A DNA stretch of 62,005 bases, filler included, from Jimgerdemannia flammicorona (Eukaryota): the NCBI GenBank assembly GCA_003990765.1. It is 2 parts of 2 records of this genome, joined end to end, with 100 filler letters (N's around TTAATTAATTAA, not from the genome) between each part and the next. Parts side by side here need not be neighbours in the genome. Positions count along the whole stretch, not along the records: positions 31,059 to 62,005 come from RBNJ01000417.1; 1 more part is not named here. The stretch is one strand, 5' to 3'. A program made the translations under genes and the position numbers. Below, piece after piece: positions 1,801-58,254 of the stretch (position 1 is its first letter; each line of letters opens with the position of its first letter). Below the pieces are notes generated by a model that ran no database searches, was not told where the DNA came from, and saw only the letters and a program-made list of their open reading frames with translations.

Positions 1801-1900
1801 AGAGAGTGCTTCTGGTAGTTAGAGGGTGCTTCTGGCAGTCAGAGGGTGTTTCTAGTAGTTGGAGGGTATTTTCAGCAGTCAGAGGGTACTTCTGGTGGTC
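1801..1900. repeat. 20-bp tandem repeat x5 (AGAGGGTGCTTCTGGCAGTC-like)
   Basis: Five consecutive 20-bp units read directly. Confidence 0.85.
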
Positions 1901-2077
1901 AAAGTCTACCACAGATTCAGGTCCTGTCACCAGTTTGGGTCCCATGGGCACTCTGGCCCTATGCCACAGTGCCACACTGGTAGCACTATAGAGCAGGGCC
2001 AAGGGGCTGGTAGGGCTAAACTAGTGCTATAGAAGAGATGTCTGGCTATTAGCCCAATCTATACAAAATGACTGCTG

Positions 2078-26704: not shown

Positions 26705-27260
26705 ATCAACATTCGCAGCCAATTCATGTTTGCTACAAAACCCCTTCTCTTGATAAATCTCGACAAGACGCGATCCACCATCCCCAAAATCATGTCTGGA
26801 TGCTGCCATGCTCTCAGCATCTCCCTTGCAATGTTTCCATCAAACTCAATCGTCCCAATGTTCCCCTTGTATACGGCAGTAAACGCGACGGTCCAAGATC
26901 AACAGTGCGGTTAAACGGGATTCCCACGATGGCTAACATATGCAGCTCTTCATGTAAGCTCTCGTAACTAGAATCTATGGACAAGAGTTCGGATAAACTT
27001 GGGGACCGAAAGGGCTCTCTTGGTTCGACTCCTGAAATGGCAGACTTCTCACGTTTTCAGGGACTGGTTATTCAGTCATGAGTCGGTCATGGGAGTTATA
27101 TACAAGCCACCGTCGGTAACCGGATAACCGGGAGCGACAAACATATATCAACACGAAACCTATTCCCCCCCATTTTCATCTCGTTCGGACGAGCCCATCT
27201 TCTGATTTGATCCATTCGCTACTTGCATATATCGAATCCACCACAAGAGAAAACTCCCAA

Positions 27261-30200
27261 ATGAACGTCGACCCTTCGTCCTCTTCGGACGTCACCGCCG
27301 TCCTCACAGCAGCAGCAACCGCCGTCGCCGATGCCGCTGCCGCTGCGAACCCGACAGCAACAGCAGCGACCTCGAGATCTCTCCTCTCGCTCCTCCCCTC
27401 CTTCCTCTTCAACTCCGTCACATTCGCCACCATCACAATCCCAACTCTACTCTTCCGCGTCTTGACTTGGTCCTTCACTCTGCATCTTAATTTCACCTCC
27501 CTTCTTATCATTCTCGGCATTCTCGCTACTGGGACCTACATCCTTGTCCGCTACCGCGTCCTCACCATATACTCGCGCCTGACGCCCACTGAGGCAACTA
27601 AACCCGCCGCTACTTCCTTCGATCTTCACCCTGACCCCGCAGGCGACAGCGAGTATGCAAAGCCCGAGTTCAAAAATTACCCGGACGAATTTCTCTCGGC
27701 ATTCCTGAGCTCCATCAAAATCTTTGGTTACCTAGAGCAACCCGTCTTCCACGAACTTGCGCGGCACCTGCAGACAAAAAAACTACTCGAGGGTGACACT
27801 CTGTTCCGTAACCCCGAGCAAGAGCGTTCGTTCTATATTGTTGTCGATGGCCACGTTCAGGTCTTCGTAAAGCCCAACAGCCAGCATCGCGGCGATGCCG
27901 GCGACGAGGGCAACACCTTCGGCGACGGCGAGGATCAGGACGAGTTCAGCCAATATCAGCTGTTGAACGAGGTTGGTGCCGGAGGCACACTCTCAAGCCT
28001 GTTCACCATCCTCTCGCTGTTTACTGAGGACACCAAGGTGAAGGGTGAAGAAGATCGCTTGCCGCCCAAGCCCACGCGAAGGGGAAGCGGCGTCCATCTG
28101 GATCCGACTTCCACCGCGGGCGAGGGTGGTTCCGTGAGCCGGGACTCGTCGCAGGAAGGTTGGTCGGCTGTGTTCCCTCACCTCGACAATTCCGACAACG
28201 AGGCCACGATCGAGGGCACCCGCCGCCGAGCCGCCTTGCGTAAATCGGGCAGCCCTTTGGCCAACACCCAGCTGCACACCACGGGCGAGGACTCGGACGA
28301 CGAGGGCGAGGAGACTGCTGACCGACACGAGTATACTGACGAGCCCCGCCGCGTTCGAAAGAACTCGAACGGCACCACCTACACTGGCTACGCCAGCAGC
28401 GGGCGCGGGCGGCGCAATTCGACGGCCTCTCGCGTCTCCCAGGCCACGTACGCTACGAACTATCGCCCGACCTCCGTGCACCCCAATATCGTCGCCCGTG
28501 CTACCGTTGACACGACACTCGTCGTCATTCCTGCGGAGGCTTTCCATCGTTTGACCGAAAAGTTTCCCAAGTCCGCCGCGCACATCGTTCAGGTCATCCT
28601 GACGCGCTTCCAACGGGTCACCTTCCTCACCGGTCATCGGTACCTCGGGCTGACCAAGGAACTGTTGAGGATCGAGAAGACAGTGAACGAGTCCGCGAGT
28701 AACTATTGTCTACCCGCCGACTTCTTCAGGCCGGGTGAGATGGAGCGCTTACGCAAAAAGTTTGTGGGCGGTGGTAAGAAGTACGTCTCGGGGACCACGT
28801 CGGGCGTCGAGGGAGATAACGAAAGGGACGAGCTCAGTGACAATGGGTTGATGGCTCGTTCAGCGAGCTCGAATGGTCGTTTCGCGACTAGGACGAGCAA
28901 CCGTTCCTCTCTCTGGTTGGATCGTTTGGGCGGGTCTGAGGCTTCCGGCCATGTTACATCTCCGAGGCTCTCGCCTGGGCCTATCGAGATTCCCAATTTG
29001 GTGAGCCCAACCAACGCTACCTTCACACATCCCCTCGCCCCTAGCCCGCCACTTCCAACTTTGATGGTGGGTTCCCCGCCTACGAGCAAGTCGCATTTTC
29101 GTCGCGGCTCAGGCTCGGGACTTCAGCAGCCGGAATATGACGAGCAAGACGAGCGCCACCTGCGCAATTCTGTCATGGAATGTCTGTCACGGAGTATGGG
29201 CCTGCCATCTCCCTCGTCGCAACTCGCCGCCCAACCAACCCCCTTCACCTCCCGCTCCACCTCTTCCGCCAGATCCTCAAGCCCGCCGGCCTCGGGCCGC
29301 TATAACCCCTCCAATCTCGACCTCTTCTCGCATACCGGTTCGACCTCTTCACTGCTCGGCTCTACCGTCAACGACTACGACAACCTATCCAATACCTCTC
29401 ACGGCTCGGGCACTAACTCGCCCACGGCTAGCGCCACGGCCAGCGCTACCGGCGTCTTCGACTCCAAGGACGGCAACGACGTTAATATTCTCTTCTTCCC
29501 CAAGGGTTCCATCCTCGTCAAAGAGGGCCAGCGCAACGCGGGCCTCTTCTTCGTCATCGATGGCCTGCTCGACGTCAGCATGAAGCCCGCACAGGGCGAG
29601 GACTTGTCGCTCGGGTCCGCAGTCGCAAAGGCCGAGATGGACGAGGCAGCAAACCGCAAGCATCGTCGCACAGCCAGCAAGAAGGAGCAACCCCAACAAA
29701 AAGGAAGGTCGTCAGGGAAGGGGAAGCAAGAGGGAAGGGGAAAGGAGCGGTCGGACAAGTCCGACAAGCCATTGTTCATGATTAAGGCCGGCGGAATGGC
29801 GGGATATCTAGCGGCGTTGTCGGGATACCCGAGCTTTGTGAATATCCGCGCATCGACGGATACGTACGTCGGGTACCTGTCCAAGCAGAGTTTAGATAGG
29901 ATCATCGAGAAAAACCCGACTGTGATGATGACGCTGGCGAAGAGGATGATCGGGATATTGTCTCCTTTGAGTAGGTATTTTCTTTTTCTGATTTGTTTTT
30001 TTCATCATTCATATTATCCCCCCCCCAGCATATCCTGCCTTTTAGGCATTGATCGGGGCGAGCAAGATACTAAATGGTTACGTTTCATTTGGCTTGGATT
30101 TCATAAACACAGTTCTTCACATCGATTTTGCTTTGGAGTGGGTCCAAGTCGCGGCTGGCCAGATTTTGTACCGCGAAGGTGATCGGAGCGACTCGATCTA

Positions 30201-30920
30201 CATCGTTCTCAACGGTCGTCTCAGGACCATCACGGAAAAGAGCGGTGGTATTGAGATTTTGGCTGAATACGGTCAGGGAGAGAGCGTGGGCGAGCTGGAT
30301 GTGCTGAGTAAGACCGACAATTTTGCTAGTATGAAGGAGTCGATTTCATGCCATGTAATTGCATTCGAACGTAATCTCTGTTGATACGATATATTTATTT
30401 TACGATAGCCGACACACCTCGTCCATCCACCCTCCATGCTATCCGCGATAGCGAGCTCGCACGCATGCCCAAGACCCTCTTCAACACCCTCGCACTCCGT
30501 CACCCAGAGATCACGATGCAAATCTCGCGCATCATCGCCCTGCGCTCCCGGCAAATGATTTACACGACCCTCGGCCCCGGTCAGACCATCTCTTCGACCG
30601 CGCACACCACTTTCCCAGAACTCTACGGCAAGAACAACGTGAACCTCAAGACCATCGGCATTCTCCCCGTCACCGCCGGTGTTCCCGTCGCCGAGTTCGC
30701 TGAGAGGCTTCGCTCCGCCCTCGAGAACTCCGTCGGCGCGAGCACCGTCTTGCTGAACTCAGCAACCGTGACTGCCGTCACGGGTAAGCACGCATTTAGC
30801 CAGATGGGGAAGCTCAAGCTGACGAATTGGTTAGCTGAGCAGGAAGAGCGCGCCAAGATTGTGCTGTACCTAGCGGACAGTGGCGTGACCAGTCAGTGGA
30901 CAAGGACTTGTATTCGTCAG
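27261..30920 (+). CDS. NTE1: Lysophospholipase NTE1 (neuropathy target esterase homolog), 5' part; exons 27261-29970, 30113-30307, 30409-30920; 3' end (patatin domain) lost at contig end
   Basis: N-terminal TM segment, YPDEFLSAFLSSIKIFGYLEQPVFHELARHLQTKKL, IVQVILTRFQRVTF, ILHIDFALEWVQV and PRPSTLHAIRDSELAR (cNMP-binding domains). GT-AG introns keep the frame. Confidence 0.95.
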
Positions 30921-30958
30921 GTAAGTTGGCGGTGAACACTGTTTTTTTTTTTTTTTTT

Positions 30959-33560: not shown

Positions 33561-34372
33561 GACCGCTTTGTTCTAGCCACGCCTGGTTTCTTTTTGCACG
33601 GATGTCAACGGTGATAACCACCAGAGCATAATGGTCGTTGATTTTAGTTTACTTCAATTTCAATTATATCTTTTGATTAGCACTGACAACCCTCTTCTCA
33701 TCATTGGACATTGTATACACCATCCGCGTTCTCTCTGTCTCTCTGACGCCATCCACAACTTACATAGGCATGTGATCATGTGAACTGATAAGCAGATTCC
33801 AGTGTTTGTGTACTAAGTATTTAACGTAAATGGGGATCGAAAACAAATCCACAATAATGCAGACTGCCTTCCCCAACTATGGTGGGTAACAAACTCGGTT
33901 CTGGACGTGGGTCCCAGTTCTGACTTCGAGGGGGTAACAATCCGGTTGAAATTCTTAAACTCATCGGCGACAAGGCTGTCCAAACCAAAGAATGTCGGAG
34001 GCGGTGGGAAGGTATAGTTGAATAAGAGAATGAAGTTATTCAGTCCGTCATCAGTAGACGTGAAGCTGAGATTTGTTCAGATGCCATAGAAGTATGGTCG
34101 GCAACGTTGTAAGATATTTTTCACAGAATACATGCTTCATCTTGGCGGTGACTTCGGCACCGGAGCCTTTGTGATATAATTACAACCCATATATAAAATC
34201 TCCCTATCACTTAAATATAGAGCACATAGTGACAGATGGTAAAGCACATAACTTAAATTTTCCAACTTCAACATCGTAAAATCGTCACGTACAAGGCGGT
34301 CTTTGTTTTTACGATTCCACTACTAAGTAACCGTTCATATGCACGCGGATATACATTTTATCTCCCACATAA

Positions 34373-35061
34373 TTAAAATATGGACAAGCTATTTGTGGGT
34401 CTTGCGGAAAAAATGTTTTGTTTAAAATCTTGCTGAATATCTTGAATTTCGTCGTCTTCCAATTTGTCATCGAATCCGTTCAGTAGGAAATACGTAACAT
34501 TTTTGCATTCCGGCAAGCTCAGACGGCACCGCTCCAGCATTGTGCGCTTCGATGGAAAAGAGGCGTAGTTTCGCACAACGATCACGTATAGTGGAATACC
34601 TGCGAAAATGGGGGTTTCAGGTCGCAAAGAAGGGACTCTTGTTACTTAATAAACAATTCATAGGAGAAAATAATTACCGAAATCACCACCGGCTCGGGGC
34701 AGCCATTTCATAAGGAACTCGTCTGACTGGTGATCGAATCGTTCATGAGAATAATAAAAATATACAGCTATCGTTGGGCAACTCGGGAATTTCCACCACA
34801 GAGGTAACATTCTGTTATTGAGCTTATCCTTGGTAAAATATACATCTTGAGGTGTTTGAACAATATGTATTTCAGTTCGTAGACATAAAACTGGTGTAGT
34901 GTCAACCGAAGACCAATTTACTTACTATGTTTGGTAGGAGAGGTTATGCCAGGCGGATCGATTTTTTTCGCAATGCGCTCCAACTGTCTTATAACTAAAT
35001 TGTTGGGGCATTCTCCGTTGATGTCGATTGTCCAATATTTTGAGATGGTATTCCCTTCCAT
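34373..35061 (-). CDS. Unknown alpha/beta protein A1 (~176 aa); exons 35061-34926, 34845-34678, 34599-34373
   Basis: GT-AG splicing gives an open frame MEGNTISKYWTIDINGECPN...AVYFYYSHERFDHQSDEFLMKWLPR...PLYVIVVRN...RCRLSLP..NVTYFLLNG. Intron positions are conserved in three paralogs. The start codon is uncertain. Confidence 0.8.
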
Positions 35062-35440
35062 TGATAAAAAGGAATTCAAGACGCAACGCTCTCTTTTCTC
35101 AGGCTATACCCGACACAGCACCTGTTACGGATCGGGCCCGTGGGAAGAAAATCAATAGGGAGCACCGGGAAAAACAATGCCATTTAGAGTACACAATTAA
35201 AAATAAACACAAATTAGATATGGTTAAGATTCCTTCCCGAACTCATTTCGTCGCGATTGAAATAACAATAACGTCATGGTACATAAAGTGTATGTCAGCC
35301 TGACCATTTTGGATTGATAGTACTCTTTGTACGCCCACAGAACAGAACACACAAAACACATGATATATACGTGACCCACCTCGTCAACTTTTGGACATAT
35401 AATCTGAACCGCAAATTTGACAACGAAGTACAAGTGAAAG

Positions 35441-36449
35441 ATGGAGACGAATCACACTGACATCTTTCGCGAACAGCCTCCCACGGATGAGGAAATGGAA
35501 ACCTTCAAAAAATTTCTGAATAATTACAAGATTGGAGACATTAAATCAATAGTCAAGACGCGGCTCAAGAATCAATCCAGCGAGATCCGTATTCTTGTCG
35601 CTGGGGACGTTGGTTCAGGTCTGTATCTGCACCATGTCCACACATAAAACATGAACACTTTAGTAGGTGTGCCATATCTAACGTTTTCCGATGATCTTGT
35701 AATAGGGAAGTCTTCTTTCGTCAAGACTCTGCTGGAGCTTTGTGGTAACCAGAGAGATGCGAGGTTTTTGACGACAGGTGCGGGTGGAGCTTCTCTTAGG
35801 TCGGACACAGCCACCTTGAAATACTATCGACTGACTGAGACAACGGCGACCAAATACTTCATCTGCGACACGCCGGGATTTCCATCTGATCTAGACATTT
35901 CTATGAGGGCCTCTCACGTGAAACGATTCGTGGACGGGTATGGGCATTTGCAAAAATGTATTTGCTGCTCTCAAAAAGTTGTACCCACAAATTTTTGATC
36001 TAACACAGGGTTCATATCAACGGTATAGATACGTCCGCAAAGGTGAAGCTATTTCATACCCCTGCAATATGGTGGAATGGTTTTTCAGCAGAAGATACGC
36101 GGACAGTACAATGGATGCTGTCATATTCATTGCAAGGCCACCCTTGAACGTCAGCGAAGGCAAGTGTAGGTTGAATTCCGACAAACTCGCGTACCTGAAG
36201 AAAATGAGGCAGGCGCTCGAGATGACTCTCGGCTGTAGGCCATTCTTCTTTGTTATTACGGCAACCGACTTGTTGAAATGGACTCCGGAAGATACGGTCC
36301 AAGATATTTTCGAATCATTCGATGGCTGTTCATTCGTCGTGGGGAAGAGAGAAAAAGGAATGTGCATGCCATCCGTCGCTGCCTACACAGAGCTGATAAA
36401 AGGCATATTTGGAAGTATTGAGGAATATCGGCTGAATCATGAAACATAA
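35441..36449 (+). CDS. IFI44-like P-loop GTPase B1 (276 aa); exons 35441-35618, 35706-35937, 36029-36449
   Basis: Spliced G1 IRILVAGDVGSGKSSF, G3 FICDTPGF and G4-like FVITATD. Exon lengths total 831 nt and stay in frame; branch site CTAAC at ~36000. Confidence 0.88.
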
Positions 36450-37085: not shown

Positions 37086-37459
37086 ATTTCTCATAGGTCA
37101 TATCTAGGACCATTTGTATATACTCCTAGTATGAATGTTTGATGTGATTTATTGAATATAGATTTCTAATCAATAATACTAATAGTAACCAAAATTCCAA
37201 CAAAATCGGGAACATCGCTCATTTGGGTGATGATATAATGCGTAACGCCATCTGGATCAATAGCGTCAGATATCAGGGACATCCCCGCCTGCACTGCTAT
37301 CCTCCAACACCTCCAACAATCAAACAATACGGATAAGCACGTAACGATGACAACGATTAAGTGCAGAATGACAATGATAGTACTCTGCATGGGTCAACCT
37401 AGAATACCAACCACTGCGAGGTACTGTCTCATTGGTGGGGTGAGAAATTCGTTGGTCAG

Positions 37460-37716
37460 TACGGCAGGGGGACAAGTCGATGTCGTGAAGCCGCCCGCGG
37501 CCGAGCATGGGGCAGATGCCAATGTCAATGACAACAACGTGCGGAATGAGACTTCTCTGCACAACGTGACGAAGGAAGGCCATGTTGACATTGTGAGGCT
37601 GCCCGTTGCCGAGCACGAGGCGGACCCGAGCGCCAAGAACAAGAATGGATTAACGACGCTTCACCTCGCTGTAGAATACGACGTCGAGATCGTGAGACTG
37701 CTCGTGGCCGAGTTCA
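37460..37716 (+). pseudogene. Ankyrin-repeat gene fragment (~3 repeats)
   Basis: GQVDVVK..EHGADANV, ETSLHNVTKEGHVDIVRL..EADPSAKNKNGLTTLHLAVEYDVEIVRLLV. Prolines interrupt the helices and the fragment ends abruptly at a G-run. Confidence 0.75.
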
Positions 37717-38658
37717 GGGGGGGAGGGGGAGGGGATGGCCCCAAGCTCCCCGGGCTACGCCCAGATGGCAGGTTGTGTATTTGTTCGAACCCATTTCCGA
37801 AAATGGCATCGTCGGCGCTTGAAACGGGTTTGAATTTGTATGGAATATTGGTCATTATTTTGGCAGTATCATGAATTCGTGTGCAGAACCAATGTGGGGA
37901 GTCTCAATGATGAAGGCCTCCGCATTATATGTTGACGACGACGGAGTGGCATGGCGTTCTTCGCGGGTAAAGAGTCAACAAAGAAGCGAGGGGACGGGCA
38001 TTGCTCAATTCGTGAATGCGTGACTATGTAGCATCAAGTTCCTTTTTTAATAAAAAAGATATTTTATATTGTGAGACATACTGCCGACAATCGTCTCATT
38101 GCACATTGCACAACACCGCGTTCTCTGATGCCATCCTTATCTTACAGGACATGTGACTGATGCGCAGCCTTCAGTGTTTGTGTTCTAAGTTTTTGATGTA
38201 AATGGGAATCGAAAACACGAATGCAGGCTGCCCTTCCAAGGTAGTTGACAATGAATAAAGACCGGGTACCCCGGTTACTGGGTTACTGGACATGGGTCCC
38301 AGTTCTGAACCTTATTGACAATGCCGTGGCTCAAGCTGATCGTAGGTGATAATCGTAATTTCATCGGCGACAAGACTGTTCAGGCCAAAGAATGTCAGAG
38401 GTGGTAGGATGGTATAATTGAATAAGAGAATGAAGTTATTTCGTCCATCATCAGTAGACGTGAAACTGAGATTTGTTCTGACAACATTTGTTCAAACCGG
38501 AAGTACGTTTGGCAACCTTGTAAATTCTCCACAGAATACATAGCGCCGCCATGTGGTAGTCATTATTGGACCAAACCACCCCGGGTACCATCGCGGGGCT
38601 AAATCTTTATATGCATGATATCTCCCTCATACAACGTGAACATAATGTCCTCTGCTAT

Positions 38659-39378
38659 TTATTTATCTTGTGAAGGAAATATTCTTTTAAGATCTTGCTC
38701 AATATCTTGTATTTCGTCTTCATCCAATTTGTCTTCGTACCCGTTCAGAAGGAAATATTTGACATTTTTGTATTCCGGCAGGCTCAGACGGCACCGCTTC
38801 AGCAACGAGCTCTTCGATGGAAATTTGACAAAATTTCGCACGACGATCACATATTGTTGGATAGCTGCGAAAATTTGTTTTTCAGATGTCGGCGAAGGAA
38901 TCCTTGTTGGTTTATAGTTCATTGGAGAAAGTACTTACTGAATTTCCCGAGTCGTGGCAACCATTTCTTAAGGAATTCATCTGACTGGTAATCGAATCGC
39001 TCATCAGAATAATGAAAATATACAACCACCCTTGATAATGATATTGTTTGTAATGGACTAAACGGACTTTCCCACCACCGACGATCGTCGAGCGTATTCT
39101 TAGCAAGATCACCTTGAGGTGTTTGAACAGACATGTGTTTTAGCTCGTAGACATAAAAAACGATGTATGGCGACCGAAGATCGAATTTGCTTACCATGGT
39201 AGATGTTAATATCGCCCGCAATGTTAATTTTGTCCGCAATGTTCTTGATCTGTTCTTTCACCGAGTCGTTGGGATATTCGCCGTTGATATCGATGGTCGA
39301 AGTAATGGAAGGGTCTCCATCAGTATGGAAGGACCAAGAGTTGGAAAAAAAATTTCTGGTGCCTGAAATCCAAGCCAT
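38659..39378 (-). CDS. Unknown alpha/beta protein A2 (~187 aa); exons 39378-39195, 39112-38939, 38864-38659
   Basis: Paralog of A1 (TIDINGEYPND, VVYFHYSDERFDYQSDEFLKKWLPR, YVIVVRNF, RCRLSLP, YFLLNG). The spliced frame is intact; an upstream in-frame start near 39519 is possible. Confidence 0.8.
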
Positions 39379-39876
39379 GTCGGTATAATATTCCCTATCA
39401 TTGATAGGAGAGAACCCAAGACGCGGTGCCCCTTTTCTCATACCTCGTCTGTCATGAACCAGGCCCGTGGGAAGAAATCCAGGATGAGTCAAAAAGTTGT
39501 TTTTGTTATTATTGACCATTTAGAGTATATTCCTGGCGTTCCATATAATTATAATCTTAAATTGTCCAAGAACTTGGTATCCTGATATTGAAACAACAAA
39601 CACAAACGCCGTGGTTCACGCTCCATTTGTCAACGTACTATGTGTCACAATAGATATATGCGATGACATTGAATTGTTTATTGTTAAGATTCCCTCGTCC
39701 GCGACACAACGTCATGGTAAATAAAACGTATGTCAGCTGACCATTTTGGATTGATAACATTCTTTGTACGCGCCCACATGATATCACAAAACTAAACATA
39801 CAAAACACATGACTCGTGACCAAAATTTGAATATCTAGACAGCCAAGGAAATTCGACATCGAAGCGCGAATGAAAG

Positions 39877-40873
39877 ATGAATAACTCGGGCATCTTTTAC
39901 AAGAAGCGTGCCACCGATGAGGAGATCGAAACCTTCAAAAAATTTCTGACCAATTACCAGGTTGGAGACATTAAGGTTGCTGACAAGACACAGCTCAAGA
40001 ATCAATCCAACACGATCCGTATTCTTGTCGTTGGGGATGTCGGTTCAGGTCTGTATCTGCACAATGTCCCCGAACGAAAATGAGTACTTTAGTGGGTGTG
40101 CTAGATCTAAAGTTTCCGATGATCATGTCAACAGGGAAGTCTTCTTTCATCAAGACTCTGCTGCGGTTTTGCGGTAACGAGAGAGAGTCGAAATTTGTGA
40201 AGACAGGCGAGGGTTCAACCGGTGCCTCGGACACAGTCACCATGAGACACCATCGACTGACTGATACAGCGACAACCAACTACTTCATCTGCGACACGCC
40301 GGGATTTCCGGAAACCACACTTAATCAAGATATCTCTATGATGACTTCTCACGTGAAACGATACGTGGACGGGTATGGGCATTTGTAAAACGTATTTGCT
40401 GCTCTCAAGAAGTTGTGCCGATAAATTTTAATCTAACACAGGATTCACATCGTCGGAATAGATACATCCGCAACGGTGAAACGGTTTCATATCTCTTCAG
40501 TTTGACGGACTGGTTTTTCGGCAAAAGATATGCGGATAGTACGATGGATGCCGTCATATTCATTGCACGGCCCCCCTTGGATGGCAAGTACAGGATGAAC
40601 GACAGACGACTCGTTCACCTGAAGAAAATGAGACAGGAGCTCGAGAAGACTCTCGGCAGCAGGCCCTTCTTCTTTGTTATCACGGCGACCGACTATATCG
40701 AAATGGCGAAGGAAGATACGGCCCAAGACATTCTCCAAGTATTTGATGGCAGTATATTCATCGTGGGGAAGGAAGAAGAAGGAAGGTGCATGCCATCCGT
40801 CGAAGTGTATACAGAGCTTATGAAAGGCGTATTTGGAAGTATTGAGGAATATCGGCTGGAACATCGGACCTAA
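39877..40873 (+). CDS. IFI44-like P-loop GTPase B2 (273 aa); exons 39877-40048, 40135-40372, 40462-40873
   Basis: GDVGSGKS, FICDTPGF and VITATD; same intron positions as B1; 822 nt in frame. Confidence 0.88.
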
Positions 40874-41559
40874 TTACGTATTATGTTACACAAAGAATAG
40901 AAGCGTCTCAAGTTCGAGGAATTAGTGTTAACGATAAAATAATATGTACGAATAAAATGAATAAACCCCTATCTAGGAATTAAGAAACTCGGCACATTGT
41001 TCGCATAAGTCGAACGGCTACACATTAAAAATTACCACGGCTGGTTTACCGATGCGCATATTGTAGAATCGTAATGGCGAAGAGCGGCACTTTATTGATA
41101 ATGTAAATAACGCGCTTTTACGCGTTACTGCAACTACATCGGCATTGACAAAGAGTTGTGGCAGGAATATGCTGGTAGTACGCTCAAGCACCGCAGTTGC
41201 GCCACGATCTGCATGCAGCGCATAGAAAAAAAAACGTATCTAAATCCATTAGTGAATGTTGAATGATCGGTACTCTAATTTTGCGTGACGTTTAGCCGGC
41301 CATTTGAGCATAATTGTTTCCATCTGAATTCGGGTTCGATGTGAACTGCATGACGATGCTCATTTTATTTTATTTTATTTTATTTTATTTTTGGCAGGCC
41401 AGCGCGTAGGTTTGTGCCAATAGATACATTACGGTTATGTACAGCTCCAGCGAAAACTCGCTGGCTGAATTCTCGGCGCATGTTGAACATAGTTATTGAA
41501 ATAAAAGATGATACTATAATCGATACATCTTGCATTCTATTTGATATGATCACTGATCT

Positions 41560-41974
41560 TAGTGTTCCGCAAAATGGACGACCAGAGCTGAACCCGAGAA
41601 TTTAATTTTAAAACCCGAGTTCAGACCCGACCCTTTATATGGTGAACATACATGCCAAGTTTCAATATATTTAGATATGGTTTCATAAAGATATAAGATA
41701 TTTTCAACTCAGGTCAGGTCAGGTCTACATTCTCTCAAAAAGTATTATAACTTTTTCAGAGAATGTAGACTCAACCTGACCTGAGTTGAAAATATCTTAT
41801 ATTTTTATGAAAACATCCAAATTTAATAAAACTTATCATATATGTTAACCATGTAAAGATGAAATACTGTTTGAATTTACAATAAATTGGTGGAGAAATT
41901 GGGTCCGGTCTGAACTCGAGTTTTAAAATTAAATTCTCGGGTTCAGCTCGGGTCGTCCATTTTGCGGAACACTA
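41560..41974. mobile_element. Young hAT-type MITE (415 bp), near-palindromic, 8-bp TSD
   Basis: TIR TAGTGTTCCGCAAAATGGACGACC...GGTCGTCCATTTTGCGGAACACTA (~70 bp). TSD ACTGATCT at 41552-41559 and 41975-41982. Internal inverted repeat at ~41683-41812. Confidence 0.95.
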
Positions 41975-42770
41975 ACTGATCTGGTGGTATGGTCTTTTTC
42001 AATAAGTGTGATATGTCAAATTATTTATTTAATTCAACGATGTATTATTAACTAATTTTATATGCAAAATATTTACCCGAACCAGATGCATATATATATC
42101 GCGCCAATGCAGATTAGACGAAGTATTTATCCACAAGAGGCGTGCACATTGTTGAGCCGGAAGTGTCGCCGAGATATGGACATCCAGCGAGATATCAAAT
42201 ACCAACATCGGTAACGGTCATCGCATCTCTCCGATTGTTGCCGATGCGTACCTGTTGTATTTGTCTGCCAACGTTTCCAGAGCCATGTTTGCCAAGCATG
42301 CATCACGACAACATGAATTCGCATATACAATTCCAATGTCTTCATAATGCAGGCATGGAAATAACTCACCGAGGGTTAGTTGTGGAAATACCCGCGTGAA
42401 TAAAACACTGCGACAAATGGTCTCCAGATAAATTTAACAATATCCGCTAGCCATCCGGCAATCGTATGAGTTTCAGATTTCGCGCTCACGCGTATCATAT
42501 AATGATGTTTGTTTGTCGTTAGTAAGCGCGTAATTCGGACCCAATAACTGTAATACAATGATCAATAGTTCGCGATCGCCGGATTGCTAGTTAGTTTAAC
42601 CGCTTGTGGCATAACACTGTGTTGGCTGTAGCGAATTGTATGTTGGCTGTAGCGAATTGTATGTATTACCAACATCCAACCGCATTATGGCGCATATGAC
42701 AATTTCGCCCGTTTGTTGTATTGACGCGCGCTCCGCGAAATTAAGATTTGATCACACATTCTTCCTTTCC

Positions 42771-43076
42771 CTGCGGCTTTGCGGTAACCAGAGAGAAGCG
42801 AGGATTGTGCCGGGATTTCCAGTATCCACACTTAATCAAGATATTTCTACGATGAACTATCACGTGAATCGATTCATGGGCATTTTCAATCGAATCAGAA
42901 AGCGTATTCGCTGCTCCCAAAAGGCCGTGCCTATCTAACACAGGGTTTAAGTTATCGGCATAGATACGTTCGCAAGGGTGAAGCCGTTTCATATCCCTGC
43001 AGTTCGTTACAATGGCATTTCGGCAGGAAACACGCGGAGAGTACGATGGATGCCTTTATATTTATTGCAATACCAC
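42771..43076 (+). pseudogene. Internal fragment of a fourth IFI44-like GTPase copy
   Basis: LRLCGNQREAR..PGFPVSTLNQDISTMNYHVNRF, a remnant of intron 2, and YVRKGEAVSYPC...ESTMDAFIFIA. The P-loop, part of exon 2 and the C-terminus are deleted. Confidence 0.85.
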
Positions 43077-45058
43077 TGTAATACACAGTTTGATAGAAAG
43101 AGGGCAAGATATCGGAGCGCGTGCAAATGCAAAAAAAAAAAATCAGAATGACGGCGTACCCACCATGCCGCAAAGGTTCAACAGATATTGTGCGATTTTT
43201 GCTAAAATGTGGTGCAGCTATAGATATGGCAAATGACCGCAGACTAATTGCAGTGATAATTACAATGCGCCATGCGGTCGAGATTGTATAGATGTTGATA
43301 AATGTTGTGGAGTTAGGGAGAATAAGCAAAGCAAGAAGCGATTAAGCAAGTCGTCAAAGATTGATGACGTAGACAAAGATTGGCTGCGCCACCACATATC
43401 GAGATGTAATAGAAAACTAGATTTTTCAACAATAAACATGCGATCAAATACGTGCTCGCCACAGCCAATGCAGTGTGTGGACCACGTATGGCTCAAGCGG
43501 TTAATCTAGCGAGCAATCCAACGAGTAATCCAACGAGCAATCCAACGGTCGAGGTTGTCCCAGAATTATAGGTCAATGTTGGAGCAGAATTATGCGGAGA
43601 TAGGATAACAAACAATAGTATACGATATGCGGGGGTGCGAGATGTAAAAATATGACACATGACTGTGTGTCAAGCAGGAGTCTATCTGGGGGCCGTTCAT
43701 TTTGTGTTTGATGGGCATTTCAACAACTAATACTCGAATAGGAATCCGCGAGTTTTCTCCATGCCCGCGTTGTTAAGACATTTGAATCTAGATTGGCATT
43801 TGTATAAGTGGGTTCACGTTATCATGGATCTACAACCTGTCGACGATATTACGATACGTGTTTTTGAGTATTCAACGGAAATGTCGCGGGTAACCTTCCA
43901 AAAATATGTTCCTTACATTGTAAAGGTTTGTCTGCAACTGGAAAATTCATAATTATCGTATGAACATCTAATAACAGTTTGCAAAGGCTCAATCGACCTT
44001 GTGAAGTTTCCATCCCTTTCTTTTTTTTTTTTGGGGGGGGGGGGAGGGTGCCGCGACATGCTATCTTGTTCCGGCACATCGATAAGCTGGAACTTGACGA
44101 CGAAAAACATGACGGACCAGGCACGGGATTTGGCAATATGGCGAAAGTGCAATGACTAATTCCACCCAGTAATCTAAGCGCATAATCATTGAAGTCGAAA
44201 GAAATCCAGTGCTCCGAGGTGACCTCAAAATTAAGATTCGATCAGACGTCAGAATCGTGGATTGGGTGTCCCAGCAACATGGTTACTAATAAACGATTAT
44301 ACGCCCGCGGAGCTCCTAGTCAGCAGGTTGGCTTTGTGCTCGAACTCGTTTCTGAAAACGTCATCGTCGGCAGATATAACAGGTTTGAACTTTTATGGAA
44401 TATTTGTTATTGGTTGAGAGGAGACAAGGAGGAGTGGTGATGACCATGGGCCCGGCATCATATGCCGACGACATGTAACGAGTCAACAAAGAAGCTAAGG
44501 GACGACATTGCTCAATACGTGAATGCGTGACCGCTTTGTCCTAGCCGCGCCCTGCACGGATGTAACCGTTATTCATTTGACACGAAAGTATATGGTGGCA
44601 TGCCATGACTTTTCAAGCACAGAAATCATTTGGAGCTTTCACTGTATGGCCAATTACATCAGAATTATTGAATGCGAGGTGAGAGACAATGCGTCATGGC
44701 ATTCGAGTATTTAATTGTAAGAAATTCTTCACAGAATACATGCGACGACTTCCATATACAGCATCAATCCTTCCTTCCTAATCACTCTTAATGCATTGAA
44801 TAAAGGTCCCTGGTGGCAGAGATGGTAATCTAAGCCAAACCTATACTCTACGACATCGCAAATTTTTTACGTATGACGTTGTCTACGTTTTTACAATTCC
44901 ACTCCTAATGTTTCCAATATCAGCCATTGTTGGCCTGTTAAGTAAAAAAACTGCCCCGCGGTTCATATGCACGCGGTTCAGTACCACCGCGAGGCTAGAT
45001 ATTTATTCATATGCACAATATCTCCCACATACAATGTGAACACGATGTCCTCTGCTAT

Positions 45059-45717
45059 TTATGTATATTTTGGAGAAATGTTTTTTTTAAAATCTTGCTC
45101 AATATATTGTATGTCGTCGTCTTCCAATTTGTCTCCGTGACCGTTCAGAAGGAAATACGTGACGTTGCGGCATTTCGGCAGGCTCAGACGGCACCGCTCC
45201 TGTAACGATGTCTTCGGTGGAAAAGCGACAAAGTTTCGCACGACAATAACATATAGTGGAACACCTGCGAAAATTTGTTTTTAAATGGCGAAGAAGGGAT
45301 TCTTGTTGCTTAATAAAACAATTCATAGGAGAACATACTTACGGAGTTCACCACCGGATCGGGGTAACATATCCTTAAGGAACTCATCTGACTTGTAATC
45401 CAGTCGCTCGTCGGAATAATAAAAATATACAGCTGCTGTCGGACAACCCGGAATTTCACGCCACAAAGGTAAGACCCTGCTACAGAGCTTTTCATCAGTA
45501 ATACCTACCCCTTGAGGTGTTTGAACAGATATATACATGTTTCAGTTCGTAGACATGATAACCGATGTATGTCGACCGAGGATCGAATTTGCTTACTCTG
45601 GTTTTCAGGAGAGGTGTTTTCCGCAATGCTACTCAACTGGCCTTTAACCAAGTCGTTGGGACAATCTCCGTTGATGTCGATGGTCAAAGGCCAAATTTTC
45701 GAGATGTAATTCAACAT
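45059..45717 (-). CDS. Unknown alpha/beta protein A3 (~164 aa); exons 45717-45597, 45510-45343, 45264-45059
   Basis: TIDINGDCPND, AVYFYYSDERLDYKSDEFL, PLYVIVVRNF, RCRLSLP and YFLLNG; 495 nt in frame. Confidence 0.8.
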
Positions 45718-46019: not shown

Positions 46020-46209
46020 AAGGTTTCGATCTCCTCATTGGTGGCAGGCTTCTTGTAAAAGATGTCCGAGTTATTCATCTTTCACTCGCGCTTCGATGTC
46101 GAATTTCCTTGGCATCATGTGGTTTGTATGTTGGTCATGTGGGCGCGTATACAAAGAGTGTTATCAATCCGAAATGGTCATCAGACATACGTTTTATTTA
46201 TATACCATG
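46020..46209 (-). other. Inverted duplicate of the B2 promoter and first ~19 codons
   Basis: The reverse complement of 46021-46112 is nearly identical to 39843-39934, and that of 46113-46209 matches the conserved promoter block at 39713-39811. Confidence 0.85.
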
Positions 46210-46273: not shown

Positions 46274-47290
46274 ATGAAGATAAATCGCGCTGACTTCTTT
46301 TACGACCAGCCTGCCACGGATGCCGAAATTGAAACTTTCAAAAAATTTCTGGACACGTACGAGGTTGGAGACATCAAAATCGTCGACAAGACAAAGTTCA
46401 AGAATAAATCCGACACGATCCGTATTCTTGTCGCTGGAGATGTCGGTTCAGGTCTGTATTTGTACCACGTCTGCGCACAAAATATGAACGCTTTGTTCGA
46501 TGTGCTAGATCTAAAAGTTTTCCGATGATCATATCGACAGGGAAGACTTCTTTTATCAAGACTTTGCTGCGGATTTGCGGTAACCAGAGGGAATCTAGGC
46601 TCATCTCCACTGGCTGGGGTCTATCTTCCAATGAAACTGACACAGTCACCTTAAAATACTATCGACTGACCGAGACAACGAGGGCCAACTACTTCATCTG
46701 CGACTCGCCGGGATTTCCGGTAACCACCATTTATCAAGACGTCTCTATGATGACCTCTCACGTGAAACGATTCGTGGACGGGTATGATTATTGCAGTCGA
46801 ATCATAAAACGCATTTACTGCTCTTAAAAGGCTGTGCCGATCTAACACAGGATTTAATCATCGGAATAGATACGTTCGCAAAGGTGAAACTATTTTATAT
46901 CCCTGTAGTTGGTTCCAAAGGCATTTTGGTATAAGATACGCGGATAGTACGATGGATGCTGTTATATTCATTGCAAGGCCACCCCTGGACATCGTCGGCC
47001 ACGAAATGTGCAAGTTGAATAACGAAAAACTCATGCACCTGAAGAGAGTGAGGCAGGAGCTCGAGAAAACTCTCGGCGACAGGCCCTTCTTCCTTGTCAT
47101 CACGGCGACCGACTCGATGGCTTGGGCAACGGAAGAGGTGTGCAGAGAAATTCTCGAAGTATTCGATGGCAGTGTATTCATCGTGGGAAAGGAAGAGGAA
47201 GGAATGTGCATGCCATCCGTCAAAGTTTACACAGAGCTTATTAGTAGTATATTCGCAAGTATTGAGGAATACCGACTGGATCATATTTGA
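46274..47290 (+). CDS. IFI44-like P-loop GTPase B3 (279 aa); exons 46274-46451, 46541-46781, 46870-47290
   Basis: GDVGSGKT, FICDSPGF and VITATD; 840 nt in frame. Confidence 0.88.
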
Positions 47291-50042: not shown

Positions 50043-51588
50043 TGTAACGGTGACCCCAGAATGATGATATCAGTACAGAAGACAGCCCTTCCTTGCAAGC
50101 CACCAGATCAGAGCACAAAAAGATCATATGGTATACGAGATGAGCAATGATGACCAACTGTGAGTCATTGTGACCACAGTACAAGCATCTTGAAGAATAT
50201 AAAAGAAGGATCAAGAAACTGCAGTAGTAGCAACCAACAAGAACCACCAATCTAAAAATAGCTCAAAGACTTACCACAAATGAAATGCCTGCTGCCTGCC
50301 AAACCTCAAGGTCAAGGAATCACCAAGATATCTCAGTTGAGGAAAGGATGTTCCAAGATATCAGAAGAGCCATGAGAACCCACTCAAGAAGGACTCCTAG
50401 TGTCCACCTGGGTACTGCAGACCCTTATCACTTCATTCTCTACTGCCATGAAATAGAAACAAGGATCACTATTGCTACTGAATACCTCCAAATATGGCAG
50501 AAGTACGAAATAGGAAACCTCCTCTACCAGGAGTTTCCACAGGCTAGCACCCAAGAGCTACAAGATTCCACTCCCATAGATATATATGAAATGAGAACAG
50601 CTAAGAAGATCCATCAGATCTTCAGGCATACATCATGGTCAATCCCCAACTTAGAGTATGTCAGAGTCTCAGACTTCAGAGACCTATCATCCTACTGTAT
50701 CAATGCACTAGAAGCCAGGGTGGCTACAGAAGTCCAGTCCACTATCACCCTCAATAGCAAAGAAGTAGAAGACTTCTGGCATCCTATCCTTCAGGACAAC
50801 CCAGACCAATTCCTGCAAGGATTGATCTCAGTATTCCAAGACCCAAGCATCCAGGTTAGACCTCCCCAAGACCCCACATTTGTTCTCTATTTTGTGGAAG
50901 AGAATCTCATAGACTGGAGAGCTCCAGATCTCCTTGTTCCCGATTTTCCCACCACAGCCAAACATGATGATGTCATTGGTGATGATGTCATTCTGCATGA
51001 CATCAAAGTACGCGAAACGCATGACCTACATATATGACAAATTTGTGAATCTCATCTCCTTCAGTAATGATGATGATGATGAAGCCCCTATGATCCTAAA
51101 CTTTCTGCTCTAAGTTCTTTGTTACACTGGATAATGCCAGCACCAGTATTCTCATGTAATACTGGATAATGCCAGCACTGGTATTCTGAGGTGACACGAA
51201 ATTGTTCCAGCACCAGCATTTTGATGTGATACTAAATAATACCAGCATTCTGAATCTGTACAACCATTAGTACCAGCCCTGGAACTTAGTAGTTTTAGTT
51301 ATTGGAATTTATATTTAGCTTTATATCTTAGCAACCATTGAATTATATTTTGTATAAATACCCCTCTTATTTTCTCTGAAATAAAGTCAGTCAAGTTCAC
51401 TTACACACACTTTCTTGCAAGCCATCTAAGAGATAACAAGACAGTTAAAGATAAGAAGTTTGAGGACTATAAGACCTTGGGAAGGTACTCCAATAAGAAC
51501 TTGCTTATAACAAACTTGAGTTAGTCTAAGAGATACATCTTGAAGAGAATCTGGCATATTTGAAGGACTCAGCAACCACTATATGACA
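50043..51588 (+). repeat. 5' LTR (~1.55 kb)
   Basis: The first ~960 bp are repeated at 57292-58252. TATA GTATAAATACCCC at ~51352 and AATAAA at ~51380; followed by the PBS. Confidence 0.8.
50285..51037 (+). CDS. LTR-encoded unknown protein ORF-X (250 aa)
   Basis: Open ORF from ATG. Second copy in the 3' LTR (57534-58259, one stop) and a diverged homolog at 59084-59870 (-). Confidence 0.7.
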   Translation: MPAACQTSRSRNHQDISVEERMFQDIRRAMRTHSRRTPSVHLGTADPYHFILYCHEIETRITIATEYLQIWQKYEIGNLLYQEFPQASTQELQDSTPIDIYEMRTAKKIHQIFRHTSWSIPNLEYVRVSDFRDLSSYCINALEARVATEVQSTITLNSKEVEDFWHPILQDNPDQFLQGLISVFQDPSIQVRPPQDPTFVLYFVEENLIDWRAPDLLVPDFPTTAKHDDVIGDDVILHDIKVRETHDLHI

Positions 51589-53799
51589 ACTTGGTGCCTA
51601 TTGGCTGGTGATTCAAGACAAATCCCTCACTTTCAAGCTGAAAAATGAACAACCCCACAACAACTACTCTGACTACAAGAGTCACCCCTGCAAGAATTCA
51701 AGATAAGATGGAAATGTATCCCCCCACATTCTATAGATATACTACTAAAGAGTCAATCCTGACCTTCATTGAAGACTTTGAACAATTCACTACCATATGA
51801 GCCCTTGGTGTGGATGCTCAATTGGCCCTTCTATCAGTCAGCCTCAGAGGACCTGCTAGAGACAAGTTCAATGCAGCCACTATTGCTGATGCTGGTGCAG
51901 CCAAACTTACCAACATGAAGGTCTTCCTCAGAATAACATATTATACTGAAGAGATCAAACAAGCTCTCAAGGATCAACTTAATACTGTCTGCCAGGGACT
52001 TAGTGAAGATCCCAACTCATTCTATATCTGAATTTGCTACCAGATTGTCTTGGCTGGCTATGATGACTGCCTCAAGAAACAAATAGCAGATTCAACCTTC
52101 CTCAAAGGAGTTCACCCTAAAATTGCCCTAGCAATCTGGTCTACCTCAGCTGCACTGACCCTTGATCAGAAAGTGGTCTTTGCACAGAGATATTGGACCG
52201 CCAGACATCCTGCCAAACACTCAATGGAGAAAATAACTGGCATCAAGATGGAGCCATTAAAGCCAACTAGTATCTTACCTGCTACAGTCATAAACAGACA
52301 ACCAATTCCACCTACCCCTAAGACAGCCAAAGCTGATCCAGTGGAAGAACTCGCCAAGCAGTTTGCTGAGATGACTGCACACCTTAGTGATATTGTTAGA
52401 GAAGTCTGAAGTATCAACAGGAGACCAGTGCAGAGATTTGCAGCCACTACAGAAGAATGCAATATCACATGCTTCAGATGTGGAGAAGAAGGCCACTATA
52501 CAAAGAGTTGCATGACCAAAACAAGATGTAAAGCCCAACCAAGCAATGCTAGCAGAACCAGAGAACAAACCAATGCAGTAGTCATTGAGGAGATTGGTGA
52601 CACTGATGATGAAGAATACTATGAGGAGCTCGAATTCTACCCTGCTATCAAAGGTACCAGAACCCAGTCCAAGCCCTATGACAAGAAGAGCAACAGCAAG
52701 CCAGTTGGAAGACCAAAGAAGACCCCAGCTGTCACTATTCAAAGTAAGACCCAACCCGAGGAGATTGATCAAGACATGGAGTTAAACAAAGCTGTCTGCC
52801 AAATTATTGAAGGCACTACTCCAGTCTCAGGAGAAAGTGAAAGCAAGAAGGAATAGAAGCTGTGCAAGACCAAGATCCACCAGTATGATATCTACAAGGA
52901 CCTCAAGGAACAGAAGGTCAATGCCACTTTTGGACAGCTAGCTGAAGTCCCTGCCTTTAGACAGCAGTTGAGAGTAGGACTTGCAACTACCACCAAGAAT
53001 CAAGAGTACAAGATTGTAGAAGCTCACAATGCACAGAAAGAATCCAAGAACTCAGGTGAAGAATCCAAAGACCAGCGCAAGACATCAGCCTATACCTCAT
53101 GTCAGATTGAAGACTATATCTTTGATGCCATCATTGATATTGGTGCTGGAGGATACCTCATGAGCAAGAAGACAATTGACCACCTAGGTTAGAACATTGA
53201 AGAGTCCACCAAGATGGTCTATGTCACAGTAGACAGTATACAAGCTACCCCCCTTGGCAAAATCCGAGAAGTCCCCATCAAGATAGGAGGAGCCACCATC
53301 CCAGTAGATATGATTGTTACAAGCACCACCAACTATGACATCCTTATTGGCAACCAATGGCTTCACAAGGCCAAGGCCATTATTGACCTCAATGCCCAGA
53401 AGATGCAGATCAACTACAGAGGAAGAAAGATATGAGTCTCTATCAATGTCCACAAAGGAGTTCTACCAGATATGGAGGAAGGAGATGAAGAGGACACAGA
53501 GGTCTTCATGTACTCAGTGAACAAGAACAAGAATAAGAACAAGATACTCAAGCTTACAGATGAGCAGTGGTATAACAAGATCATCGATGGCTATACCCCT
53601 CAAGGAAGATGCCCCCATGGTACTAGAATATACTGCTCTGAACACCTGAATGACTGCTGGTCCTGTATCAGTGAAGTCAGGAAAATCTGCTAACAGAAAC
53701 ATGAGCAAGAAGCCGCTGAAGCAAAAAGGAAAGCCAAAGAAGATGATCAGCCCCCAGAGCTTCAAGCTGACAGTGATGATGAGGAGGAATAAGGATCAG

Positions 53800-54230
53800 A
53801 CATCACCCTCAAGATCAAGAAGTTTCACTCCAAAGCCAAGATCCCAGAATACAAGACTGAAGGAGCTATAGGAATGGACTTTGCCAGCATTCAAGATGCT
53901 ACCCTTGAACCACAGACCACTACCCTACTTGGTACTGGAATTGGAGTCAAGCTGCCAGAAAACCATGCCAGAATTATCAAGACCAGGAGCAGTCTGGCCA
54001 AAAGTGAAATCTCAGTTGAAGGAGGAGTAATTGACCCTGATTATACTGGTGAGATCTTCCTCATAGTCAGGAATCACAACCCCACCACCCCATTCAAAGT
54101 CAAGAAGTATGACAGAATTGGCCAGATGCTGATCTATGAAATTAAGAAGCCCAAGATCATTAAAGCCATCGAATTCATTAAGACTAAGAGAGGAGAACAA
54201 GGCTTTGAATCTACTGGAAGAGGAGCCTAT
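53800..54230 (+). pseudogene. dUTPase domain between protease and RT
   Basis: AIGMDF, KTRSSLA, GVIDPDYTGE, DRIGQ and RGEQGFESTG: all five dUTPase motifs. Confidence 0.92.
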
Positions 54231-57200
54231 GCTGCCACCAATATTACCAAACTTGAGTACAAGAAAGACAAGGACCAGAACAAGCACACATATACTATTG
54301 GAGAAACTTTCTCCTAGAGGAACAACTTCTCAAGATCCTGCACCAGAATGAAGAAGTACTTGTTACAGACTTTAGGGATATCCACAATCAAGAACCCAAG
54401 TACTACCATGAAGTTGATACCAGTGATACCAAGCCTATCTACCAGAAAGCCAGACCTATATCACCTGCCTACAGAGAGTGGCTGTGAGCAGAACTCAAGG
54501 AAATGGAAGAAGCCAGAATCATCAAGCAAGCTATCAGCCCCTGGGCCTCACCCATTGTCCTAGCCCTAAAGAAAGGAAGCAAGCCTGGAGAGTTTGCACC
54601 AAGACTCTGCATTGACTACAGGAAACTCAATGCCATCACCAAGAAGGATAGATAGCCCTTGCCAAATATTTAAGAAATCCTTATCACCCTTAGAAGTGAA
54701 GCCAAATACTACACCACCTTGGATCTGTTCTCAGGTTTTCATCAGATTGGTCTCACTTAAGATGCCAGTGAGAAATCAGCCTTCATCACACCTGATGCCA
54801 CCTATATCTATCTGCGAATGCCATTTGGAATGTGCAATGTCCCAGCAAGTTTCCAGTAAATGATGAACAGAGTCTTCAGTAATGAGATTGGAAAATGGTT
54901 CTTTATCTATGTTGATGATGTAATCATCTTCAGCAACACTATACAGGAACATGTCAATTATATACAACTAGCCCTCAAGAAGCTCAAGGAGCATGGCCTC
55001 TATATTAAGTCCAAGAAATATAAGTTTGCAGCTCAAGAAATTACCTACCTAGAACACCTCATCAACCAGACTGGAATCCACACAGACTCTATGAAGATTG
55101 AGGCTCTTGCAGCCTACCTGAGACCCAGAATAACCACAGAAGTCCATGCCTTCCTTAGACTGGCCAGCTACTATAGAAGATTCATCAAAGGATACTCCAA
55201 CATTGCAGTACCTATCTACAAGCTACTGAAGAAGGAGACCAAATTCGAATGGACCAAGGAGTACCAAGAAACCTTCAATGAACTCAAGACCAGGTTGACC
55301 CAAGCACTCATTCTCAGATGACCAGACTGGAATCTAGAATTCATCCTGCAGACAGACATAAGTGCTATAGAACTTGGAGCAGTCCTAGCTCAGAAGAAAG
55401 ATAGACATGAATATGTTATCTCTTATGCAAGCCAAGGTATCCATGGAGCAGAACAGAACTATGAGTTATGTAAGCTTGAATGCTTAGCAGTAGTTTGAGC
55501 AGTAGACAAGTTCCACTACTACCTAGCTGGGAAACACTTCACCATTCAAACAGATCATTCTGCTCTTGCCTGGCTATTCCACACTCTGAACCCTAAAGAA
55601 ATATATGCCAGATGGATCTACAGGCTGCAAGAGTATAACTATACTATCAAGCACTGCTCAGGAAAGACCAACACCAATGCCGATACACTCTCAAGGACAC
55701 CCTGAAACACCACCATCAAGACTATTCAACATGAATAAGGAGCTATACTATGGATTAATTAGCTACCTTGGGCAGTGAAAGATATCCAACCACCTTGAAC
55801 CCTGAACAATCACTATCATCAACTGGACTTAGAAACAGTTTTAATTAGACAACACTACACTCAGAAAAGGAGGAAAGCTAGTAATACCTGAACACAAGAA
55901 GTATCAAGTAATGAAGGAAGTACATGAGCAAGGACACTTAGGAGGAACCAATATACACGACAAGGCAAGAAGCACTATGTAGTGGCCCAAGATGGAAGAA
56001 AATCTGTGCCAATTTGTCAAAGGGTGTGACAAGTGCCAAAAACAGAAACAAGATCAGCAAGACCAGACACTCAGGTCATCAAGAATTGAGCCTATCCCCT
56101 TCCACTACATCACAATAGATATCATTGGACCACTACCAGTAACACTATCAGGAAACTGCTATATTATAGTTATTATAGACCTCTTCACCAAATGGATAGA
56201 GGCAGGAGCATTATAAGAAGCCAATGTCCTCTCTATAGCCAACTTTCTATACCAAGAAATTATCTGCCACTACAAGACACCAAAGCAAATCACAACAGAC
56301 TGTGGAACAGAATTTGTCAATGGATTCCATGAGATAATGTATCAGAAATACAAGATCCAGCACATCAAGACCACCATATACCACTCTCAAGGAAATGGAC
56401 AGACAGAGAGAACCAACAAGACTCTCAAGAACATCCTAGCGAAGATCTCAGAGACATATGAGAATTGGGATAACTATCTCCCAACTGCCCTCTCTGTCCT
56501 ATAAGATATATGGTCACAGAGCACACATTTTACCCCAAGAGAGCTGTTCTTCAGAGAAGAAGATTCTGATGAAACCTCAGCTACAAATCTAGACCTAACT
56601 TGGAGATAGGTTGATGCAGAAATCCAGAGACTATACCAAATCAGGAAGAAGGCTGAAGATTACATCACTAAGTCACAAGTGCTGATAAGGAAGAATGTGG
56701 AAAAGAATTACAAGGCCCTAGAACCCATCTGAATTGGAGAAAAGGTTCTACTGTATCGAAATATGGTAGAAGCCTCATGGTCGTGAAAACTGGAGCCCAA
56801 ATGGGAAGGATTCTTCTACATGCAAAACATCAAGGGAACTACCTTCTGGCTTAGAAAAATCTCAGAGACCATACTGCCTACTACAGTACATAGGAACAGA
56901 CTCAAGAAGTACTATAAACCTATACAAGAGAAGCAAAATGTAATGACTACCCATGAGGTTCTAGTCTGCGAATCATAACAGCATATCCTGTGACCAGCAG
57001 ACTATCTGTCTGGACCATTCTCTAAGGGATACGGCACTGGAAACTACTCATTCATGAGACTTTTGAAGTCAGAGGAGTTCGAACCATCAACTGATTGGTC
57101 AAGATCAGAATCAGGCCCTTGCTCTATATGAAGGAAACAACCCTTCACCATCACACCAAAATACAAAGTGAAGATACCAGTCTATAAACACCACTTTTCA

Positions 57201-57291
57201 ACCCCTTGCCAGAGGTTATGGGATCAGCAAATTTTTCAAGACTGGACCAATGAATAAGAATGCTCAGGAAGATCCTTATTCAGGAGGAAGA

Positions 57292-58252: not shown

Positions 58253-58254
58253 AT

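Follow-up and report, generated by a model that had tools for sequence, protein, structure and literature searches.

A spliced, tandemly triplicated fungal GTPase gene with a probable IFI44-type G domain and a head-to-head partner

The GTPase genes of the cluster

The window considered here is the whole analysed stretch of 62,005 nucleotides from Jimgerdemannia flammicorona (assembly GCA_003990765.1), a root-associated, early-branching fungus of the Endogonales, and our subject is a GTPase gene, c1, at 35441..36449, together with its tandem paralogues c2 and c3 and the partner genes p1–p3 that they face. The original prediction had proposed that this segment encodes a stand-alone fungal GTPase of the type of the animal proteins IFI44 and IFI44L. 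c1 is a real spliced gene: with its three exons joined, the frame runs for 831 nt to a single stop at its end, and the motifs of that prediction are all present, in the order given, once the two introns are removed, IRILVAGDVGSGKSSF reading across intron 1 and HVKRFVDGYVRKG across intron 2. The product is 100% identical to the NCBI hypothetical protein BC936DRAFT_142013 of this species (P0001). Intron 1 is spliced out in contigs of the public runs X1, X2 and X3, and intron 2 in those of X1 and X3; X3 is RNA on record and reads as a close relative, its contigs showing 2 differences from c1 in 162 letters and 12 in 348, and X1 and X2 are presumed RNA. Introns of the c1 type are fixed by these spliced contigs and by an intronless retrocopy of the paralogue c2. 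The GTPase features are as follows.

35441..36449, plus strand: GTPase copy c1, 276 amino acids (aa); exons 35441-35618, 35706-35937, 36029-36449
35619..35705, plus strand: c1 intron 1, GT..AG, 87 nt, interrupting the P-loop
35938..36028, plus strand: c1 intron 2, GT..AG, 91 nt, interrupting the GYVRKG motif
39877..40873, plus strand: GTPase copy c2, 273 aa; exons 39877-40048, 40135-40372, 40462-40873; source of the retrocopy found on G000:C29446
46274..47290, plus strand: GTPase copy c3, 279 aa (P0002); exons 46274-46451, 46541-46781, 46870-47290
42723..43075, plus strand: fourth GTPase fragment, decayed, without a P-loop and with a stop past the beta-4 strand
G000:C29446 (L004) 1-1070, minus strand: processed retrocopy derived from c2, its frame open over 269 codons; NCBI annotation P0034

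The three intact tandem paralogues share 64–67% identity at ratios of nonsynonymous to synonymous substitution (dN/dS) of 0.45–0.63, and no replacement among them falls in residues 159–176 (pN 0). A strict reading of these ratios is opposed by the synonymous sites, which differ at 28–33% as against 13–23% of aligned intron positions; dN/dS is therefore a soft measure here, and constraint shows more clearly in the frames, which are intact and whose indels keep phase. When exon 3 was searched against its own genome, 5 matches from 7 candidates were obtained, namely c1–c3, the decayed fragment and the retrocopy. The last is 98.2% alike to c2 over 798 gap-free nt and ends in an A-run; of the 14 differences, 13 are transitions of the C>T or G>A kind, and 10 lie in a CpG context. 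It also carries an insertion of ~110 nt near its 3' end, bordered by a short duplication.

A single G domain and its probable kinship with animal IFI44

By its motifs and predicted fold, the c1 protein is a soluble TRAFAC GTPase, in which an intact G1 (GDVGSGKS), the G2 threonine, G3 and a Ras-like alpha/beta fold are all found. Thr94 of G2 and DTPG-F of G3 are invariant or nearly so across nine relatives, the phenylalanine after DTPG standing where Ras has its catalytic glutamine. The AlphaFold2 (AF2) model, made with a 9-row alignment, shows a single G domain (mean local confidence, pLDDT, 82; predicted template modelling score, pTM, 0.85). A helix precedes strand 1 (16-28), a hairpin occupies 176-185, the final helix is long, and an IFI44-like G-Y-V-R-K-G turn lies past the switch-II helix. 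G4 departs from [NT]KxD: the atypical TATD, correctly anticipated by the original prediction, occurs in c1–c3, and TAAD or TAVD in two relatives, with the aspartate kept and the lysine lost. Neither a hydrophobic segment (Kyte-Doolittle maximum 1.0) nor a CaaX end is seen in the protein. That an N-terminal TLDc domain is missing, as had been claimed, is borne out by the lack of a Pfam TLD match, by the AF2 model, which shows the G domain alone, and by the lack of room upstream, where the next start codon, on the opposite strand, is 379 bp off.

Three established families were considered and rejected as homes for c1. Membership of IRG/IIGP fails on an IIGP match confined to residues 17-76 (60 of 375 positions) and a TMq of 0.34, and septin membership on a Septin profile score of 18.8 against a 26.2-bit cut-off, over residues 48-136, and a TMq of 0.32. 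For GIMAP/AIG1, there is no Pfam row for AIG1 (PF04548) at E up to 10 with either P0001 or P0002, and the GIMAP HHalign alignment spans 25 columns. The likeness of c1 to GIMAP/AIG1, septin, Toc34 and IRG proteins extends to the TRAFAC fold, the hydrophobic residue after G3, weak sequence matches over G1–G3 and Foldseek E values of ~1e-5; c1 differs from them in being without the helical domains of IRG, a coiled coil or a membrane anchor.

The kinship with IFI44 is drawn from structure searches, profiles and trees. In the ESM-Atlas structure search, 9 of 10 rows were animal clusters with template modelling (TM) scores of 0.69–0.73, five of them named IFI44 or IFI44-like, whereas the solved GIMAP, septin, IRG and Toc GTPases reached a TMq of at most 0.44 against the c1 model, a comparison across different models and aligners in which the Atlas is one source with predicted models on both sides. 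Outside G1–G3, the IFI44 profile alone aligns (E 0.003, a weak value that needs four proteins from Joint Genome Institute (JGI) contigs), and the GIMAP and AIG1-like groups show no similarity above shuffles. The tree joins the fungal proteins with the IFI44 domains (support 92/90), and the 10 animal IFI44-like domains form their own clade (100/99), with the fungal proteins beside it and not nested, which does not fit orthology to animal IFI44. In the Atlas, in the half-domain profiles and in two trees, the closest matches did not fall in another GTPase clade. c1 further shares with animal and invertebrate IFI44 a predicted fold over ~240 residues with a helix before strand 1, the RIL-x-x-G strand of the P-loop, C-D-[TS]-x-G and, following G3, a hydrophobic residue, and the G-[HNY]-[VI]-x-x-G turn (GHVREGY in catfish, GYIREGEY in Endogone). 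The fungal proteins differ in a shorter alpha-4 region, a beta-hairpin insert after strand 4, the absence of TLDc, TATD for [TS]KxD, the lack of an interferon system and the head-to-head partner.

Several results weigh against this kinship. The top Pfam match is IIGP (E 4e-6; 26.6 against a 24-bit cut-off) and the top sequence match in the PDB is a septin; the C-terminal half of the five close proteins alone scores 14.8, like controls; and over the whole domain HHalign is nearly tied, at 104.9 for IFI44 and 101.7 for the tandem fungal AIG1-like group. The IFI44 hidden Markov model (HMM) gives the five close proteins 23–34 bits, AIG1-like domains up to 38 and P0011 43, and the AIG1-like HMM scores the five at 37–49. 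Approximately unbiased (AU) tests keep three other placements (p 0.134, 0.212 and 0.078), the trees were built without IRG, septin, Toc or plant rows, and [TS]KxD is the G4 motif of every one of the 10 IFI44-like domains. One might accordingly regard c1 as an Endogonales-restricted GTPase of paraseptin type (AIG1/septin/Toc-like), its likeness to IFI44 being composed of ancestral class features and language-model bias. We consider this unlikely, given that the Atlas rows are of IFI44 type and match almost the full chain at TM ~0.7, well beyond what any solved GIMAP, septin, IRG or Toc structure reaches, and that alignment beyond G1–G3 is with IFI44 only. The resemblance of c1 to IFI44 thus holds at moderate strength, with single-profile scores not singling out IFI44, and we judge it probable that the soluble TRAFAC GTPase encoded by this triplicated gene has a G domain of IFI44 type and belongs to a TLDc-free lineage sister to IFI44/IFI44L. 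What had been proposed thus stands as to a stand-alone protein and, with the moderate strength just given, its IFI44 type, and is amended in that the protein lies beside animal IFI44 and not inside it.

A 3-row profile was searched against 1.84 billion representatives (E up to 0.001), its shallowness limiting its reach, and 22 matches were returned. Five are close: P0001, P0003 (JGI), P0004 (Endogone sp.), P0005 (JGI) and a 60-aa fragment. Five others are tandem IFI44-like animal proteins, P0023 being so named at source and the other four assigned because they share its 100/99 clade; five are tandem AIG1-like proteins (three named, from agarics), two are GIMAP-type, two more are of AIG1/septin-like type, and three are unplaced. 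A 6-row profile gave 8 matches of 7,999 scored, among which the protein encoded by the retrocopy and three further JGI proteins were additional. Close relatives came only from Endogone and JGI contigs in these profile searches, and the searches gave no full-length relative from bacteria or viruses. P0005 and P0035–P0037, on JGI contigs of ~1 kb, form a sister group of 271–278-aa GTPases that are 23–26% identical to P0001 and have no recognisable G4 motif.

This narrow range, in which none of the 22 matches is a named close relative from another fungus and the closest Atlas clusters are animal, would also suit acquisition of the gene by the Endogonales through horizontal transfer, with an animal or protist as donor. 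That origin seems highly improbable to us: the fungal proteins are sister to, and not within, the 10 animal domains, profile identity between the fungal and IFI44 sets is ~17%, the shallow query profile limits reach, and IFI44-like domains occur in plant clusters of the Atlas as well, which fits an old origin followed by loss. The PANTHER IFI44 family includes non-animal members. The fungal copies suggest that the IFI44 family is older than animals. The lack of TLDc is not peculiar to the fungus, since animal IFI44-like clusters of 281–317 aa are present in the Atlas; human IFI44 is also reported to be without a complete G4 (10.1101/2020.02.24.963900), and oyster IFI44L is described as TLDc plus MMR_HSR1 (PMC11682996). 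The TLDc-free fungal variant is new here; in the rows listed by searches of the open literature (the top ones for the larger sets; subscription papers and supplements aside), no paper on a fungal IFI44-like protein appeared.

The head-to-head partner and the possible role of the pair

In 3/3 units each intact GTPase copy faces a co-duplicated partner gene on the minus strand, a new observation that the original prediction had missed.

34373..35061, minus strand: partner p1, 176 aa; exons 35061-34926, 34845-34678, 34599-34373
38659..39519, minus strand: partner p2; exons to 39195, 39112-38939, 38864-38659; P0041, 234 aa as annotated
45059..45717, minus strand: partner p3, ~164 aa; exons 45717-45597, 45510-45343, 45264-45059
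35062..35440, no strand: spacer between the p1 and c1 start codons, 379 bp; candidate shared promoter
G000:C2660 (L007) ~1426-2021, minus strand: p2 processed copy carrying stop codons and a long A-run, embedded in repetitive sequence

Were p2 to begin at the later start codon, 39378, it would be 187 aa long, and the divergent spacers measure 357–498 bp in unit 2 and 556 bp in unit 3. The three partner exons splice in frame in every unit, with 57–63% identity and dN/dS of 0.32–0.60; both introns of p1 (X1, X2) and of p2 are spliced out in contigs, as is the last p3 intron in X2. P0042 is p1 from a second assembly (96–99% alike in matched exons), in whose NCBI annotation the p1 and p2 locus tags flank that of c1, and a search of the genome with P0042 found the cluster and the processed copy and nothing else. 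That copy is without the 83-nt segment 38985-39067, which an X1 contig also skips, so an alternative splice form was retroposed.

No Pfam family was found for the partner, no minus-strand frame has a P-loop motif, and the searches made gave no homologue outside the species. Its Atlas neighbours are all clusters of the small-GTPase clan, including CENP-M, at 0.82–0.88, values under 0.9 that make them a lead only, and the weak model (pLDDT 52) follows the strand and helix order of a G domain from beta3 to alpha5, beginning with DING at the expected DxxG place. The pseudo-GTPase CENP-M (0.85) resembles it as an Atlas feature neighbour of similar length and in the missing P-loop motif; the partner differs in showing no sequence or fold match to it and in seeming to begin at strand 3. 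Speaking against such a fold are the Atlas scores below 0.9, the low pLDDT, the fold searches, which gave no match, and HHalign against the GTPase groups, with a probability of at most 1.6%. That the partner is a P-loop-less remnant of a GTPase fold acting as regulator, adaptor or decoy is the likeliest reading, though at less than an even chance.

The GTPase and its partner probably form a working unit, because each copy was duplicated with its divergently transcribed partner. To judge by the layout, the two may be co-expressed from the short shared promoter, the partner regulating the GTPase or serving as a decoy. By analogy with septin, GIMAP, Toc34, IRG and GBP biology, c1 may bind GTP, perhaps weakly, the change of lysine to alanine in G4 loosening guanine binding, and would act as a cytosolic switch that, without the Ras glutamine, is run by G-domain dimerisation instead of a Ras-type GTPase-activating protein.

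The likeliest role, which we put forward tentatively and at somewhat less than an even chance, would be cell-autonomous defence or a non-self response, for which the grounds are limited to kinship, a patchy distribution and birth-and-death turnover. The IFI44 kin family is infection-induced and expanded in animals, with 19 ifi44 genes in zebrafish (10.1101/693333), and a lineage-specific expansion is seen here too. Against such a role stands the reported finding that human IFI44 keeps its activity against respiratory syncytial virus (RSV) after deletion of G1 (10.1101/2020.02.24.963900), so that having the G domain in common does not by itself imply the same antiviral mechanism. The pair might instead combine an IFI44-type GTPase of non-defence function (organelle- or V-ATPase-linked housekeeping, or symbiosis signalling) with a partner that is a chance passenger of segmental duplication. 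Direct immune evidence is absent, P0001 is one sequence on two contigs and so shows no allelic hypervariability, the duplicated block includes non-coding and ankyrin remnants, and the invariant 159–176 suggests a fixed partner surface; yet a narrow distribution and a history of tandem gain, decay and retroposition are not the pattern of housekeeping GTPases, and the partner frames are intact in all units at dN/dS below 1, so that we rate this as less likely than defence, though a serious contender. The fullest version of the defence reading, in which an IFI44-type GTPase predating the animal–fungal split, a bidirectional promoter and a gating or decoy pseudo-GTPase would form a two-gene cassette diversified as a unit, strikes us as distinctly unlikely; were it true, it would offer a minimal TLDc-free system for testing the biochemistry of the IFI44 G domain.

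A fungal sister lineage would mean that the IFI44-type G domain can stand alone outside animals, the small soluble proteins suit assay and structural work, and the partner, repeated head-to-head three times, makes a tangible candidate for a regulator. Both IFI44 and IFI44L are strongly induced by interferon, with a mechanism described as unexplored and a GTP site only predicted (10.1101/2020.02.24.963900); our PDB search found no structure of either. Surprise is tempered because IFI44-like domains also occur in plant clusters and the fungal function is only inferred. A precedent is MxF, a branch of ancient origin in fungi, its function given as unknown, of a GTPase family that interferon induces in vertebrates; unlike c1, it is a multidomain member of the dynamin superfamily, unrelated to the single G domain of c1 (PMC11789081).

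Neighbouring sequence

Within the cluster, an inverted 181-bp copy (76%) of the c2 upstream and start region (39718-39935) lies at 46020-46200 in the unit-3 spacer, and an element of ~420 bp at 41559-41975, resembling a miniature inverted-repeat transposable element (MITE), is bounded by long, imperfect inverted repeats at its termini and has a palindrome within. An ankyrin-repeat frame stands between units 1 and 2 (37239-37874, plus strand; Pfam Ank_2, E 4e-10), with remnants of its 3' part again at 44323-44531. A third duplicated stretch, downstream of p1 and p2 (33740-34133 and 38122-38541), holds minus-strand frames of 87 and 59 codons, for which a Pfam search gave no match. An NTE1-type lysophospholipase gene with cNMP-binding and NTE P-loop domains (27120-30935, plus strand) runs into the N gap at 30959, which truncates it; this gene belongs to contig C416, and the GTPase cluster to a different contig, C417. 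Decayed long terminal repeat (LTR) retroelement remains, with dUTPase, reverse transcriptase and chromodomain pieces, occupy 50231-61000. The observed/expected CpG ratio is ~1.1 in the cluster region against 0.06–0.16 in the repeat-rich flanks, where the low values point to methylation-driven decay.
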